From an uncultured Lachnospiraceae bacterium (GTDB lineage Bacteria; Bacillota; Clostridia; Lachnospirales; Lachnospiraceae), in the NCBI GenBank assembly GCA_934371475.1, contig CAKRNX010000001.1, forward strand, positions 17,214 to 81,213: a stretch of 64,000 nt of DNA. Reading direction: 5' to 3'. This document shows positions 1,396 through 64,000 of the stretch, piece after piece. Position 1 is the first letter of the stretch. Every line of letters begins with the position of its first letter. The translations under genes were made by a program, and so were the position numbers. The notes below the pieces were generated by a model, which worked only from the letters and a program-made list of their open reading frames with translations, did no database searches and was not told the DNA's origin.

Positions 1396-1463
1396 AGCAT
1401 ATTTGAAAAGACTTTTCGTGAACTGCCGGTTCCCGTTTACCAAAACGCCTTTTCAAATATGCT
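1396..1463. repeat. Family-1 MITE-like repeat, short form
   Basis: Terminal inverted repeats AGCATATTTGAAAAG / CTTTTCAAATATGCT flank a CTTTTCGTGAACTGCC core shared with copies at 51734, 61880, 29851 and 63440. Confidence 0.7.
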
Positions 1464-1476
1464 CTGTGGTCTTTTT

Positions 1477-7900: not shown

Positions 7901-8704
7901 CCGTCCCTGGTAGACATCCTGGCGGTCTGTCAGATACTGCTGATACGTATCCTCAATAGGCTTTCTGTAATATCCTTCTCCGAACTCCACATGCTTTAAC
8001 TCTGTGGAAAATGTTGTATGACGGCAGTGATCTGACCAGTACGTGTCCAGCACGCGGATCTCCGTCATGGAAGGATCTCTCTTTTCCTCGCCCGCAAAGT
8101 AATGCTGAATATGCTGGAAATCCCGGAACGTCATAGCCAGATTCAGGGAATCGTACAGCTCTTTGAGTTCCTGTTCATCCATGCCGTCAAATCCGTCAAA
8201 AATTTTGACGTCTGCCGGATCCTCAAATTTTGTAACCAGCGTTTCCGGCTTTTCCAGATCGGTCTCGCGGGAATCCACCGGATTAATGCAGTAACTTTTA
8301 ATGGACTGGAACTCTTCGTCACTGATGGCTCCTTCTATGACATAAGTGGTAGCAGAACGAATGATCGGCTCTTCATCTTCTTTCAGGAATTTCACACACT
8401 GTACTGCAGAATCTGCTCTCTGGTCAAACTGTCCCGGAAGGTATTCCACAGAAAAAGTGCGGTCCTGATCGCCCATGGGAAAATTCTCCTGATACAGGAT
8501 ATCTACCGGCGGCTCTGCAAATACAGTTTTACAGGCTGCTGCAAATACCTGGTCTGAAATATGTTCCACATCGTAACGGATCAGGATACGGATTTTCTTT
8601 AACCTCTCCACTCCAAGATAGCTGCGGATTTCATGGGTCAGATCCTTTGCTGCTCCCGCAAATGCCTCCTTTTTCTCCACATACACTCGCCTAACATTAT
8701 TCAT
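4904..8704 (-). CDS. purL: Phosphoribosylformylglycinamidine (FGAM) synthase, single-chain form
   Basis: 1266 aa. Duplicated AIR-synthase-like core, then a C-terminal glutamine amidotransferase (LALGICNGFQAL nucleophile Cys, ASHGEGRF). GAGGAGG RBS upstream of the ATG at 8704. Confidence 0.95.
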   Translation of the reverse strand: MNNVRRVYVEKKEAFAGAAKDLTHEIRSYLGVERLKKIRILIRYDVEHISDQVFAAACKTVFAEPPVDILYQENFPMGDQDRTFSVEYLPGQFDQRADSAVQCVKFLKEDEEPIIRSATTYVIEGAISDEEFQSIKSYCINPVDSRETDLEKPETLVTKFEDPADVKIFDGFDGMDEQELKELYDSLNLAMTFRDFQHIQHYFAGEEKRDPSMTEIRVLDTYWSDHCRHTTFSTELKHVEFGEGYYRKPIEDTYQQYLTDRQDVYQGRKDKFVCLMDLALMAMKKLKKEGKLEDQEESDEINACSIVVPVEIDGKTEEWLVNFKNETHNHPTEIEPFGGAATCLGGAIRDPLSGRTYVYQAMRVTGAADPTVSVKDTLKGKLPQKKLVREAAHGYSSYGNQIGLATGYVKEIYHPDYVAKRMEIGAVMGAAPRKDVIRETSDPGDIIILLGGRTGRDGIGGATGSSKVHTEASIEVCGAEVQKGNAPTERKIQRMFRRPEVSRLIKKCNDFGAGGVSVAIGELADGLQIYLDKVPKKYAGLDGTEIAISESQERMAVVVDPSDVEEFLKYAGEENLEAVEVAVVTADPRLVLIWRDKEIVNISRAFLNTNGAHQETDVAVDIPEKENRYFVKEQVSDVRAKWLDTLADLNCCSQKGLVEMFDSSIGAGSVLMPYGGKYQLTETQAMVAKLPVLKGHTDTVTMMSYGFDPYLSSWSPYHGAVYAVLESVARIVANGGDYSKIRFTFQEYFRRMTEDPHRWSQPFAALLGAYAAQMGFGLPSIGGKDSMSGTFNEIDVPPTLVSFAVDVNTYQNIISPELKKAGNKLVVLRIDKDEYDLPVYSQVMDQYGKFFEDVKAGKIVSAYALDGKGLAAAVSKMAFGNGLGVKLEHNVAPEDLFAAEFGDIVAEVPAEKVGQLSITYTVVGEVTDRAALEYSSVSIPLDEALAAWKGTLEKVFRTGSGQEEGAEAKFFAGKPDKAEGYLDEEGCYHADSVYVCRHKVAVPRVFIPVFPGTNCEYDSTKAFERAGAEVDVKVFRNRTAEDIRESVDVFEKSIGQAQIIMFPGGFSAGDEPDGSAKFFATAFQNEKMKEAVMKLLNERDGLALGICNGFQALIKLGLVPCGEITGQKEDSPTLTFNTIGRHISKMVYTKVMTNKSPWLRQAKLGGVYANPASHGEGRFVANDEWLAKLLVNGQIATMYADCDGNRSMDEEWNVNGSYLGIEGITSPDGRILGKMAHSERRDTAVAINIYGEQDMKIFESGVEYFK

Positions 8705-8847
8705 TCGTTTTTCCTCCTCATTATGTCAGGCGGATTTCCCGCCTGTTGTTTGCTGGTGACACTGCAGATTTGCCGCGGTTCATGCAGATCCGCCTTTCTG
8801 CTTGCTCATAGCCGGGCTGCCTGGTGGCTTATCCGGCCAAACCATGT

Positions 8848-8944
8848 TTCACTCCGTTTCGGTCGGCGCAAATCCATTGTCCCCCGGACAATGTGCGCCT
8901 TGCCGGAGGCTATATCAGATGGGGAGTCACTCCTCCATCTGATA
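8848..8944. repeat. Family-3 palindromic module plus ATCAGATGG hairpin
   Basis: Same module as 1477-1573. The hairpin ATCAGATGGGGAG..CTCCTCCATCTGAT (8914-8943) overlaps the stop codon and last five codons of CDS 8927..10609. Confidence 0.8.
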
Positions 8945-18222: not shown

Positions 18223-18320
18223 AACAAAAGTGTGCTTCGCACACCTTGCGAACCACTGCTTTGGCAGCACAGCTTTTGTTCCGCGCGCGAGCAGGCTTCT
18301 TCTATGCGAGCTGCGCAGGA
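18223..18320. repeat. Family-4 GC-rich repeat
   Basis: AACAAAAGTGTGCTTCGCACACC..CACAGCTTTTGTTCCGCGCGCGAGCAGGC..GCGAGCTGCGCAG. Copies at 45847-45954 and 62094-62170. Confidence 0.75.
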
Positions 18321-29850: not shown

Positions 29851-30016
29851 TTAGAGCGTGTTTGAAAAAGGCTTTTTGTGAGCTGCGAGTTCCAGTTTGT
29901 GGGAGATTTTGCCCGAATGAGGGCGGCGTAGCGGGGCTACGTCAACCGAATAAGGACAAAATATACCGCAAAGTGGGGCTTGCAGATCGCGGAAATGTTT
30001 TTCAAACACACTCTAA
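29851..30016. repeat. Family-1 MITE-like repeat, long form
   Basis: 19-bp terminal inverted repeats TTAGAGCGTGTTTGAAAAA / TTTTTCAAACACACTCTAA. Differs at only 6 positions from the copy at 63440-63601. Confidence 0.85.
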
Positions 30017-30236
30017 CATTCCTGATGCGGGGTGCACGTCATGCGGACACACAGCACATTTCTCCTGTAAACATCCACATTCCGCTTTGCATTTATATCG
30101 CCTATTATATCATAACTTTCCGCATTTCCAACGGCAAAAAAGGAAACCCTGATATGCATCATTTCCGGATCACCCTGCAGTTCATCAGCCGGAAGGATGG
30201 ACTGTAACAGAAAAAGCAAAAAAAATTCAAAAACAG

Positions 30237-30266: not shown

Positions 30267-30287
30267 AATCTAGTGAGTCATTCACGT

Positions 30288-30358
30288 AGGGGATTGGTCA
30301 AATGGTATGATAGGGGTCTCCAAAACCTTTGGTGGGAGTTCGATTCTCTCATCCCCTG
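30288..30358 (+). tRNA. tRNA-Trp: tRNA-Trp (anticodon CCA)
   Basis: Cloverleaf folded by hand: acceptor AGGGGAT/ATCCCCT, anticodon stem GGGGT/ACCTT with loop CTCCAAA, T-arm GGGAG-TTCGATT-CTCTC. The 3' CCA is not encoded. Confidence 0.9.
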
Positions 30359-30368
30359 TAGTCTGAAG

Positions 30369-30419: not shown

Positions 30420-30500
30420 TCAGGAATGCCTGGACATTCCTACTGCGCAGATCCATTGCCCTCCCCCGGACATGTATGCCCGGCCGGAGGCTATATCAGA
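30420..30500. repeat. Degenerate family-2 core plus family-3 fragment
   Basis: CAGGAATGCCTGGACATTCCT, followed by GCGCAGATCCATTGCCC..CCGGAGGCTATATCAGATGG. Confidence 0.55.
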
Positions 30501-30520
30501 TGGCTGCGGATCTGGCATTT

Positions 30521-43478: not shown

Positions 43479-43580
43479 AAAGTGTGCTTGAAAAAAATTT
43501 TTGTAAGCAGCGAGTTCCAGTTTGAGTGAAATTCCGCCCGAATAAAGGCAAATTCAAGAATGCTCCGGGAATTGCAGATT
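43479..43580. repeat. Truncated family-1 repeat abutting a family-2 core
   Basis: AAAGTGTGCTTGAAAAAAATTTTTGTAAGCAGCGAGTTCCAGTTTGAGTGAAATTCCGCCCGAATAAAGGCAAA, then TTCAAGAATGCTCCGGGAATTG. The right half of family 1 is missing. Confidence 0.65.
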
Positions 43581-43615
43581 TACAGAAATGATTTTTCAAG
43601 AAAGGATGTGCTGCT

Positions 43616-44155
43616 ATGTCATTACCAAAACATGAAAGTTACACCCTAGAGGATATTTATACTTTACCAGAAGGAACCAGGGCTGAGCTGATTGACGGCC
43701 AGATCTATTACATGGCACCGCCCAGTCGCCGCCATCAGCAGATTGCCGGAAAGCTCTTTGCTGCTATCTTCAACTACATTGACAGCAAGGGCGGATCCTG
43801 TGAACCGTACATTGCTCCATTTGCAGTCTTTCTAAGCGAGGACGACCGGAATTATATAGCGCCGGATATCAGTGTTATTTGCGACACCAATAAGCTCACA
43901 GACAGAGGATGCAATGGTACCCCGGACTGGATCATTGAAATCGTTTCGCCCGACAGCAGGCGCATGGATTATTTCACAAAACTGTTCAAATACCGGACCG
44001 CAGGCGTTCGCGAATACTGGATTGCAGATCCAGTCAAAAACTTAATTCTGGTTTATAATTTTGACACCAGCGATTCGAAGCAGTACACTTTTGCAGATAC
44101 AATTAAGGCAGGGATTTATGATGATCTCTCTATTGATTTCAATAAAATCAAGTAA
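43616..44155 (+). CDS. Uma2 (DUF820) family putative endonuclease
   Basis: ELIDGQIYYMAPPSRRHQQIAGKLF, PDISVICD, PDWIIEIVSPDS and GVREYWIADP match the Uma2 PD-(D/E)xK pattern. Confidence 0.8.
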   Translation: MSLPKHESYTLEDIYTLPEGTRAELIDGQIYYMAPPSRRHQQIAGKLFAAIFNYIDSKGGSCEPYIAPFAVFLSEDDRNYIAPDISVICDTNKLTDRGCNGTPDWIIEIVSPDSRRMDYFTKLFKYRTAGVREYWIADPVKNLILVYNFDTSDSKQYTFADTIKAGIYDDLSIDFNKIK

Positions 44156-45802: not shown

Positions 45803-46059
45803 CCTGCCGGAGGCTTTTTGTTTCACAGGACGCAATTTTCTGTGAAAACAAAAGTGTGCTTCGCACACCCCGCGAGCCACTGCTTTGACAGCACAGCTTT
45901 TGTTCCGCGCGCGAGCAGGCTGCGGTAGCACTTTCCTCTCTGCGAGCTGCGCAGTCTACACTTCGTTTCGGTCGGCGCAAAGCCATTGTCCCCCGGACAA
46001 TGTGCGCCCTGCCGGAGGCTTTTTGTTTCACAGGACGCAATTTTCTGTGAAACAAAAAG
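45803..46059. repeat. Composite repeat: two 52-bp direct repeats bracketing family-4 and family-3 modules
   Basis: CCTGCCGGAGGCTTTTTGTTTCACAGGACGCAATTTTCTGTGAAA(A)CAAAAG occurs at 45803-45854 and 46008-46059, with one indel-like difference. Each copy holds a 13-bp perfect stem TTTTGTTTCACAG/CTGTGAAACAAAA. Family 4 (45847-45954) and family 3 (45957-46020) lie between them. Confidence 0.85.
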
Positions 46060-51733: not shown

Positions 51734-51806
51734 AGAACATGTCTAAAAAAGCTTTTCGTAAGCTGTCAGTTCCAGTTCACGGAAATGATTTTCCAAACAT
51801 GCTCTA
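51734..51806. repeat. Family-1 MITE-like repeat, short form
   Basis: AGAACATGTCTAAAAAAGCTTTTCGTAAGCTGTCAGTTCCAGTTCACGGAAATGATTTTCCAAACATGCTCT. Confidence 0.7.
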
Positions 51807-59576: not shown

Positions 59577-59830
59577 TTCCATACTGCGTTTTTATTGTAT
59601 TCCGGCATTGTAAAATCAAGTATCCCGCGGATGTAAAATCAAAGTAAATTTTAAGTGCGATATTCCGCACGCGAACAGGCTGAGTCAGTAATTTTCCTCA
59701 ACATAAAAAGAGATGCGCGGATTTATTCCATACACATCTCTCATTCTTCTATATTATTATTGGGATTACAGTGTCAAAAAGTCTGATCCTGCCTGTGCCT
59801 GCATGCCTGTAACAATCCGGGTAATTCGGG

Positions 59831-59901
59831 TTCAAGAATGCCCCGGCATTCTTGCTGCGAGGTGCGCGTCATGCATCTGCATGGCATATTTCTTCTGCGC
59901 A
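59831..59901. repeat. Family-2 repeat, full length (type copy)
   Basis: TTCAAGAATGCCCCGGCATTCTTGCTGCGAGGTGCGCGTCATGCATCTGCATGGCATATTTCTTCTGCGCA. Confidence 0.8.
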
Positions 59902-61879: not shown

Positions 61880-61952
61880 TTAGAGCGTGTTTGAAGAACA
61901 TTTCCACAAACCGAAAATGGCAGCTCACAAAAACCTTTTTCAAACATGCTCA
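61880..61952. repeat. Family-1 MITE-like repeat, short form, inverted orientation
   Basis: TTAGAGCGTGTTTGAAGAACATTTCCACAAACCGAAAATGGCAGCTCACAAAAACCTTTTTCAAACATGCTCA. Confidence 0.75.
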
Positions 61953-62093: not shown

Positions 62094-62170
62094 AACAAAA
62101 GCGTGTTTCGCACACCCCACGGGCCACAACTTTGGCGGCACAGCTTTTGTCCCGCGCGCGAGCAGGCTGC
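62094..62170. repeat. Family-4 GC-rich repeat
   Basis: AACAAAAGCGTGTTTCGCACACCCCACGGGCCACAACTTTGGCGGCACAGCTTTTGTCCCGCGCGCGAGCAGGCTGC. Confidence 0.75.
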
Positions 62171-63255: not shown

Positions 63256-63391
63256 AATGACTCCTCCTCGTCTCTGATGCTGTTTCTATTCCGGAATTTT
63301 CCGCATCTGTGTTATGAGATTGTTTATACCCTATCTGTCCGGAAATTGCTATGGAATATTGTCTGAATTATTTCCTCAAATTCCAGTTCAG

Positions 63392-63601
63392 GATTCAGGA
63401 ATGCTCCGGCATTCTTGCTACGAGGTGCGCAGAAGGCCAAGAGCGTGTTTGAAAAAGGCTTTTCGTGAGCTGCGAGTTCCAGTTTGTGGGAGATTTCGCC
63501 CGAATGAGGGCGGCGTAGCGGGGCTACGTCAACCGAATAAGGGCAAAATATACCGCAAAGTGGGGATTGCAGATCGCGGAAATGTTTTTTCAAACACGCT
63601 C
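63392..63601. repeat. Family-2 repeat fused to long family-1 MITE-like repeat
   Basis: TTCAGGAATGCTCCGGCATTCTTGCTACGAGGTGCGC (63392-63430), immediately followed by the 162-bp family-1 copy (63440-63601). Lies between the ABC ATPase and binding-protein genes. Confidence 0.85.
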
Positions 63602-63605
63602 CAGA

Positions 63606-64000
63606 TCAGATCACATAATCTGTCAGTTCTTCTACTTCACCGAAGAACTTTCTGTAAACCTTTCTTCTTACATAGCCAAAATTCTCGCTCGCACGGTTGC
63701 GTGTATGTCCCAGTTCTTTGCACGATATCACGCTCTGTACATTCGCCGGCCGGTTTCCGAGAATGATAATCCGGTCACTCAGGTAAATAGCCTCGTCGAT
63801 ATCATGTGTGACAAGGATCATCGTCTTCTGCTCTTCTCTCCAGATCCTGAGCATCTCCTTCTGCATCTGAATCCTGGTCAGGGCATCCAGTGCCCCAAAC
63901 GGCTCATCCAGAAGCAGCACCTGCGGATTATGCATCAGCGCGCGTGCAATGGAAGCTCTCTGCGCCATACCACCCGAAAGCTGCCGGGGATAGGCTTTCT
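63606..64000 (-). CDS. ABC transporter ATP-binding protein (NitT/TauT family), 5' end beyond the window
   Basis: The reading frame is open to the window edge and reads [37 protein letters not shown] (signature plus Walker B), then [13 protein letters not shown]. Confidence 0.85.

Follow-up and report, generated by a model that had tools for sequence, protein, structure and literature searches.

A palindromic intergenic repeat of an uncultured Lachnospiraceae bacterium as a miniature transposon of the DUF6783 family, probably mobilised by an IS5-family transposase

A stretch of 64,000 nucleotides from an uncultured Lachnospiraceae bacterium (assembly GCA_934371475.1, contig CAKRNX010000001.1, positions 17,214 to 81,213), analysed here at its full length and referred to as the window, contains six copies of one palindromic repeat, which raises the question of whether such a repeat is a mobile element, a small gene or a structured RNA. 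The original prediction, made from the letters of the window, had read the repeat as a miniature inverted-repeat transposable element (MITE) and had not recognised it as a named family. The reading as a MITE stands: the element is small and without a transposase gene of its own, carries terminal inverted repeats (TIRs), occurs as dispersed copies at unrelated sites in several genera, is present or absent depending on the strain, and has ends identical to those of an autonomous insertion sequence (IS) found in the same hosts. The novelty does not stand, as the element is already contained in Pfam, mis-typed as the protein family PF20574 (DUF6783), and is described as a MITE in passages of a 2024 preprint (bioRxiv 10.1101/2024.01.18.576133). 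We consider it highly probable that this is a DNA transposon of the non-autonomous kind, for whose movement in trans an IS5-family transposase is the most likely agent.

Anatomy and distribution of the repeat

The copies in the window were located by blastn and by nhmmer with a profile built from the long copies, and all six predicted copies were recovered at or near the positions expected for them. They comprise two copies of 160 or 161 nt, one internally rearranged copy of 127 nt and three copies of about 70 nt. The long copy L1 occupies positions 29854-30013 of the plus strand, or 29852..30015 with its TA flanks (160 nt, T-TA...TA-A), while L2 lies at 63441..63601, likewise on the plus strand, with 161 nt and degenerate flanking dinucleotides (AA / CA). 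The two are 96.3% identical over 162 columns, which corresponds to the six differences originally counted. The intermediate form M1 (43480..43606, plus strand, 127 nt) has two degenerate termini. Among the short copies, S1 (1396..1464, plus strand, ~69 nt) has 72% identity to a 71-nt short copy that another genome carries intact, S2 (51735..51804, plus strand, ~70 nt) is 79% identical to the intact short form and S3 (61883..61951, minus strand and hence in opposite orientation, ~69 nt) 85%. The terminal 17-mer AGAGCGTGTTTGAAAAA, searched with up to three mismatches, occurs nine times in the window as opposed to 0.2 occurrences expected from shuffles.

The whole element is one long imperfect palindrome with arms of 79 nt that are 72% complementary. 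Where TIRs of 17-19 bp had been noted previously, the part conserved in all long copies is 16 bp long, GAGCGTGT(T/C)TGAAAAA, and is the outermost section of this larger palindrome. The ends in most genomes read GAGCGTGTTTGAAAAA on the left and GAGCGTGTCTGAAAAA on the right, and the length is 160 nt in 17 of the 18 long copies. TA is found on both sides in 17 of the 18 complete copies outside the window, and of the 36 half-sites, 29 have a C and 7 a T next to this TA on the outside, giving a YTAR context that is mostly CTAG. For the outer TA, a target dinucleotide that flanks the inverted repeat (GAGCG...) is the best reading, rather than a part of it; where elements adjoin, they have a single TA in common.

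The distribution was obtained from a pattern scan with one genome per species. A 160-nt form that is about 90% identical was found in Oliverpabstia intestinalis (five loci) and in a Blautia sp. (three loci), as well as in two Clostridia metagenome-assembled genomes (MAGs), a 'Ruminococcus' MAG, Fusicatenibacter and Lachnospiraceae MAGs. Four other genomes each gave three to five or more exact-pattern hits. The flanks differ at every locus outside the window and the sites are mostly intergenic. The MITE was not found in the plasmid collection, and its left arm had no match in the viral contigs.

With about 90% identity to the common form, the copies of the window constitute a slightly divergent subfamily, in which a paired A:T to G:C change in the stem is seen; L1 additionally has two 1-nt indels that compensate each other, so that its length stays at 160. 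One further copy of this window-like subfamily, with degenerate TA flanks, lies in L072, an 18.8-kb contig binned as Tidjanibacter massiliensis (Bacteroidota), which is probably a mis-binned Clostridia contig rather than a case of cross-phylum spread (three-digit L numbers denote loci and contigs outside the window).

The partner insertion sequence, the target site and the decay of copies

The search for an autonomous element with the same termini led to an IS of 879-880 bp that belongs to the IS5 family. At the Blautia locus L047, a MITE copy is followed by one shared TA, the terminus GAGCGTGTTTGAAAAA and then a transposase gene, whose product, fused across the frameshift, reaches 220 bits with the IS5-family model NF033580 of NCBIfam (cut-off 110) and also matches the Pfam families DUF4096 (PF13340) and DDE_Tnp_1 (PF01609). 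Ten complete IS copies of 879-880 bp, 80-100% identical, were obtained from a protein search of viral contigs; they fall into four or five lineages that are 80-86% identical to one another, and the IS copies overall come from a Blautia MAG and from contigs that are classed as viral. All ten have the same 16-bp inverted repeats as the MITE, including the T/C variant at position 9, and all ten are flanked by C-TA...TA-G. One 15-kb GenBank record, MT835968.1, carries both elements, the IS at 4-882 and a 71-nt MITE at 8375-8445, each flanked by TA. Against the IS, the plasmid collection gave only a weak 94-nt IS5 match.

The IS has two reading frames, OrfA and, shifted by -1, OrfB, which meet at an A7G or A6G run, and when the two are fused, their product aligns over the full-length family model; a programmed -1 frameshift at this A-rich slippery run is the putative way in which the two are joined. 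With its NF033580 match, its DUF4096 and DDE_Tnp_1 domains and a 2-bp duplication, the IS resembles the IS5 family, and its DDE transposase, inverted repeats and short target duplication place it there. We take short two-ORF members of the IS427/ISL2/IS1031 type to be its closest likenesses, with about 880 bp, GAG ends, OrfA/OrfB and an A-rich slippery run.

How the IS inserts is indicated by one pair of alleles. The filled site L079 (...tttgtacTA[IS]TAgaatgtcc...) and the empty site L171 (...tttgtacTAgaatg... / ...tttgtacTAgaatgtcc...) differ by a clean 2-bp TA duplication in CTAG. Empty-site patterns for the IS insertions of L076 and L073 were searched for and none was found. A 4-bp (CTAG) duplication was rejected for the MITE, as copies with T-TA...TA-G or C-TA...TA-A flanks, among them L036, L044, L066 and L070, fit a 2-bp repeat only. 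Since the IS with identical ends makes a clean TA duplication, we favour a 160-nt element with a duplicated TA over a unit of 162 nt inserted at T|A.

Strain comparisons show filled and unfilled sites of the MITE. Downstream of an AraC-type gene, the element is present in L016 (O. intestinalis) and in the metagenome contigs L174, L176 and L177, while contigs L175 and L178, with flanks that are about 98% identical, are shorter by 163 nt. At a Blautia site near an AraC-type gene, L049 and L180 are filled and L179 is left with a 25-nt end remnant. L2, together with the unrelated repeat next to it, is missing without remnant from the orthologous spacer between the ATPase and binding-protein genes in L169 (78% amino acid identity). 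For L1, the element was present in all five contigs found in strain-level look-ups of its site, and none of the 80 metagenomic orthologs of its AAA-ATPase neighbour (80-84% amino acid identity) had the same upstream context (tRNA-Trp, tblastx), so that no empty L1 site was obtained. The phage collection contained no relatives of the MITE site of MT835968.1. As a side observation, the sequences L174:668-990 and L016:3860-4140 both carry the MITE after the same AraC-type gene and then continue with wholly different sequence; because the two strains diverge completely beyond the same insertion, the MITE marks a synteny breakpoint.

The shorter forms had been attributed either to a nested insertion or to a series of internal deletions, and it is the latter that our data support. 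As predicted, the short copies keep the termini and lose the internal segment, with the left ~47 nt and the right ~22 nt retained and the central ~90 nt gone. One junction, GTTTGT|GGAAATG, is common to S1-S3, L045 and MT835968.1, and because it is identical across these copies, the ~70-nt form represents a propagated deletion subfamily. Around it lies a decay series of 127-143 nt (M1, L050, L033/L042), 71 nt and a 26-nt mini-palindrome (L034). M1 itself, which had been taken at 43479-43550 for a copy truncated by a different repeat, retains its right arm: it is composed of the left ~70 nt, a ~20-nt replacement of the centre that does resemble another repeat family, and the right ~40 nt (~43567-43606).

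MITE copies often adjoin another like end across one TA. The neighbour is a full IS at L047:7145-8000, a solo 16-nt terminus at L029:5020-5054, and a degenerate terminus at L016:3962-3980; L034:2703-2728 holds the 26-nt mini-palindrome, which is made of two termini. Such abutting ends suggest insertion beside existing ends, or hairpin-driven deletion that leaves ends behind.

Several observations weigh against mobilisation of the MITE by this IS group, or against the TA duplication as we read it. The MITE and the IS are alike only over the terminal 16-17 nt and share nothing internal, which is why mobilisation in trans is something we infer rather than observe. Because there is no likeness beyond these terminal nucleotides, the MITE appears to have captured the ends of the IS rather than to be a deleted IS, and an origin as an internal-deletion derivative was rejected on the same grounds. 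The window contains no homologue of the IS5-family transposase (tblastn best E-value 1.6), in agreement with the original statement that no transposase is in view. Both strain-level 'absent' alleles of the MITE (L175/L178 and L179) retain a TIR-like word or an end remnant instead of being clean empty sites; they may have arisen by deletion, or a solo end may have been there beforehand, and they do not alone prove the TA duplication. From the sequence, moreover, a 160-nt element plus duplicated TA and a 162-nt unit at T|A are the same outcome and cannot be told apart, and the preprint takes the latter view. Finally, in a second IS pair, the empty site L172:299-334 (...aatccTGgtgcc...) and the filled site L082:2398-3310 (...aatccTA[IS]TAgtgcc...), the distance between the flanks is as expected from a 2-bp duplication, but with TG in the empty allele in place of the TA of the filled one, a mismatch that is taken as polymorphism and recorded here as unexplained.

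With these points in mind, the following mechanism is proposed. The transposase of the 879-880-bp IS5-family IS, produced from two overlapping frames joined by a -1 frameshift at the A7G/A6G run, would recognise the 16-bp TIRs of the 160-bp near-palindrome, which are exactly those of the IS, and act on the MITE in trans. Insertion would take place into YTAR, mostly CTAG, with duplication of the central TA, giving a net insert of 162 bp, i.e., 54 codons. Copies would then decay through internal deletion of the palindrome, and one 71-nt derivative would itself have spread. Where the element is co-transcribed, as may be the case in two ABC-transporter operons, it would form a hairpin of about 75 bp.

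RNA structure, coding capacity and other explanations

Selection for a structured RNA, such as a cis-regulatory hairpin, an RNase III site, an mRNA stabiliser or a small RNA, with spread as a secondary matter, is an alternative that we consider unlikely. The predicted hairpin is very stable, with -89 to -91 kcal/mol on the plus strand (z ~ -12) and -63 to -67 kcal/mol on the minus strand (z ~ -8), so that the plus strand, with 8 G-U pairs as opposed to 1 A-C mismatch, folds about 25-38 kcal/mol better. Double, compensatory changes occur at 5 of the 53 pairs, and two copies of the window, L2 and S2, lie within ABC-transporter operons. However, the covariation term is a negligible -0.58 kcal/mol, and copies that are about 90% identical leave most pairs without any variation. 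The orientation of the element relative to co-directional flanking genes is the same in four cases and opposite in seven, i.e., there is no strand preference, and at L2 it is the weaker-folding strand that lies in the sense of the flanking genes. No copy matched Rfam at the gathering threshold or at an E-value of up to 5. The G-U asymmetry, with about nine informative pairs, is a property of one master sequence and thus weak evidence, and the pattern of copies is accounted for by the hallmarks of a transposon. Owing to the negligible covariation and the lack of orientation bias, RNA structure was rejected as the primary explanation; effects at the RNA level are a possible consequence of insertion and not the reason for the existence of the family.

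A more far-reaching proposal holds that the element is more than a passive parasite, namely a master sequence that is tolerated and possibly used by the host. The copies inside operons might then serve as Correia-like modules of RNA processing or stability, and the transposase might prefer a TA beside an existing end, building arrays such as those in L016, L029 and L047. It is prompted by an insert of exactly 54 codons that is stop-free in one frame per strand, and by the far better folding of the plus-strand RNA, and we regard it as doubtful. On the reading as a transposon, the most likely consequence for the host would be that transcripts of both ABC operons, and the 5' leader of the AAA-ATPase gene, contain a long hairpin.

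The possibility that the repeat encodes a small protein or domain, DUF6783, and that its copies are paralogous genes or gene fragments, arises from the open reading frames (ORFs) 29862..30152 and 63314..63766, which exist as listed in the original prediction, span L1 and L2 and score above the gathering threshold of PF20574, as do translations of the consensus. The consensus is stop-free in one frame on each strand, the unit from TA to TA has 162 nt or 54 codons, and in-frame insertions into genes are mentioned in the preprint passages (bioRxiv 10.1101/2024.01.18.576133). However, both strands of the same DNA translate to PF20574 matches (E-values 1e-28 and 1e-24), which is to be expected of a translated palindrome and not of a gene. 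Substitutions among the 18 long copies are distributed over the codon positions as 16/16/12, and 10 of the 44 are synonymous, a fraction equal to the 23% expected at random; two create stop codons. Among the 1.8 billion representative proteins of one library, 226 ORF clusters with lengths of 24-203 amino acids contain the peptide, at arbitrary offsets and with no conserved position of the start codon across the 226 representative ORFs. Codon positions, strands and offsets thus all speak against a genuine protein family under purifying selection, and the TIRs, the TA flanks and the IS with the same ends are found in addition. The repeat is non-coding, as originally argued, and the ORFs are read-through frames over it; we hold a coding function to be very improbable. 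These data indicate that the 'protein family' PF20574 is the conceptual translation of a palindromic non-coding transposon.

Spread as a REP/BIME-type palindrome by a RAYT (IS200/IS605-like tyrosine transposase), or mobilisation of the IS630/Tc1 type, is equally improbable: the copies are intergenic, palindromic, numerous and often located between operon genes, TA duplication is seen in IS630/Tc1 as well as in this element, and TA within CTAG resembles the known IS630 target, but the true 16-bp TIRs are identical to those of an IS5-family DDE element, the unit measures 160 bp instead of the 20-40 nt of REP palindromes linked to RAYT, and no RAYT or IS630-type gene was seen beside any terminus in the loci examined, in which no search was aimed at either.

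Setting in the window and relation to known systems

The window is more than 99% identical to human-gut-type metagenome contigs and is partly syntenic with a Lachnospiraceae MAG. Intact TA/TA flanks are confined to L1, and five of the six copies carry degenerate ends or flanks. S1-S3 are, in addition, 72-85% identical to the intact short copy. The family is old in this genome and largely dead in the window.

On one side of L1, an AAA-ATPase gene of the minus strand has its start (29797), and on the other lies tRNA-Trp (30287-30359, opposite strand). Upstream of L1 in the sense of the AAA-ATPase gene, a strong promoter-like site is present on the minus strand at 30131-30104 (TTGGAA, 16 nt, TATAAT and an upstream TG; 10/12 matches), and given this site, L1 would sit in a 5' leader of about 300 nt. 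The two copies said to be inside operons are indeed each placed between an ABC ATPase gene and a binding-protein gene: L2 sits 4 nt past the stop codon at which an ABC ATPase gene on the minus strand ends and is upstream of a second minus-strand gene, for an NMT1-type binding protein, and in one minus-strand operon S2 separates the gene of a periplasmic binding protein from that of an ABC ATPase. S1 is found between two minus-strand genes and S3 upstream of the called start of a Cons_hypoth698 gene. M1 comes to its end a short way upstream of a Uma2-family (putative endonuclease) gene whose start codon is at 43616; at 43590-43618, M1's degenerate right end TTTTTCAAGAAAGGATGTGCTGCT leads directly into this ATG, and because the end abuts the start codon, the likely ribosome-binding site of the gene (AAAGGA) is inside the decayed terminus.

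The window is also unusually rich in other intergenic repeats. A second, unrelated palindromic family with the core TTCAAGAATGCCCCGGCATTCTTGCTGCGAGGTGCGCGTCATGCA has about 11 copies (59829-59901; also 14803, 25550, 25932, 30408, 36513, 52954, 55609, 59545, 60332 and 63383-63430), and the ORFs running through it have no Pfam match; one of its copies is directly beside L2 and is the repeat that is missing together with L2 from L169. Three copies of a third family, AACAAAAGTGTGCTTCGCACACC...GCACAGCTTTTGTTCCGCGCGCGAGCAGGCT, lie at 18223-18297, 45847-45921 and 62094-62168 with 85-95% identity, one of them 140 nt from S3. A fourth family, TTTCACTTCATTTCGGTCGGCGCAAATCCATTGTCC...GGACAATGTGCGCCCTGCCGGAGGCT, with a 52-nt unit, CCTGCCGGAGGCTTTTTGTTTCACAGGACGCAATTTTCTGTGAAA, occurs at 1474-1549, 8847-8922, 30463-30503 and 45803-46059; one copy is beside S1, and at 45.8-46.06 kb the fourth family and the 52-nt unit are interleaved with the third family in what is apparently a composite element.

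The results are relevant for annotation, as DUF6783, like hundreds of Lachnospiraceae genes called 'hypothetical protein', appears to be a transposon in translation. They are also relevant for assembly, which breaks at copies of the MITE; several contigs were seen to end within the element. The link to an IS5-family IS and the reading of the flanks as a TA duplication provide a mechanism, open to testing, for the mobilisation of a MITE found widely among abundant Clostridia of the human gut, and where copies lie between ABC-transporter genes, naturally occurring alleles with and without the element can serve to ask whether a hairpin of about 75 bp alters operon expression. Nothing in these findings would surprise a specialist in mobile elements.

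The closest known system is the element described in the preprint, which is based on SPLASH and compactors (bioRxiv 10.1101/2024.01.18.576133). Its passages on DUF6783 report a 162-nt core from Eubacteriales, among them Blautia and Ruminococcus, that shows inverted symmetry, one ORF per strand, host genes in filled and empty states, mostly intergenic positions and mobility, and the authors call the element a MITE comparable to NEMIS. The same passages report no target-site duplication, give the site as TT|AG, often at a TAG stop, and do not name a transposase. The element of the window agrees in its PF20574 match, its 160 nt plus TA giving 162 nt, its inverted symmetry, its open frame per strand, its Blautia and 'Ruminococcus' hosts, its mostly intergenic positions and its filled and empty alleles, and is regarded, on the basis of these features, as belonging to that family; the window copies are a divergent subfamily (~90% identical) plus old 70-nt derivatives. 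The site agrees as well, being YT|AR here and often at a TAG stop; stop codons of flanking ORFs coincide with the end of the element in L016, L029 and L050. All features given in those passages thus match the measurements made here. Relative to the account in those passages, our analysis differs in the IS5-family partner with identical ends and in reading the extra 2 nt as a TA duplication. It newly adds this partner, the TA/YTAR target reading, the short subfamily with its decay series, and explicit evidence against DUF6783 being a protein.

Beyond this family, REP/BIME palindromes of 20-40 nt linked to RAYT are a different type from a 160-bp MITE with DDE-type inverted repeats. The Correia or NEMIS elements of Neisseria are near-palindromic MITEs of about 100-160 bp with TIRs, TA at the site, and long as well as internally deleted short forms; they are frequent between co-transcribed genes and can sit in frame within genes. 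Their RNA hairpins are experimentally known as targets of RNase III and the elements as donors of promoters, roles that for the MITE of the window would be hypothetical. No sequence relationship between the two was noticed, with no direct alignment of one to the other, and the host phylum is different. The likeness of the DUF6783 element to NEMIS is also drawn in the preprint passages (bioRxiv 10.1101/2024.01.18.576133).

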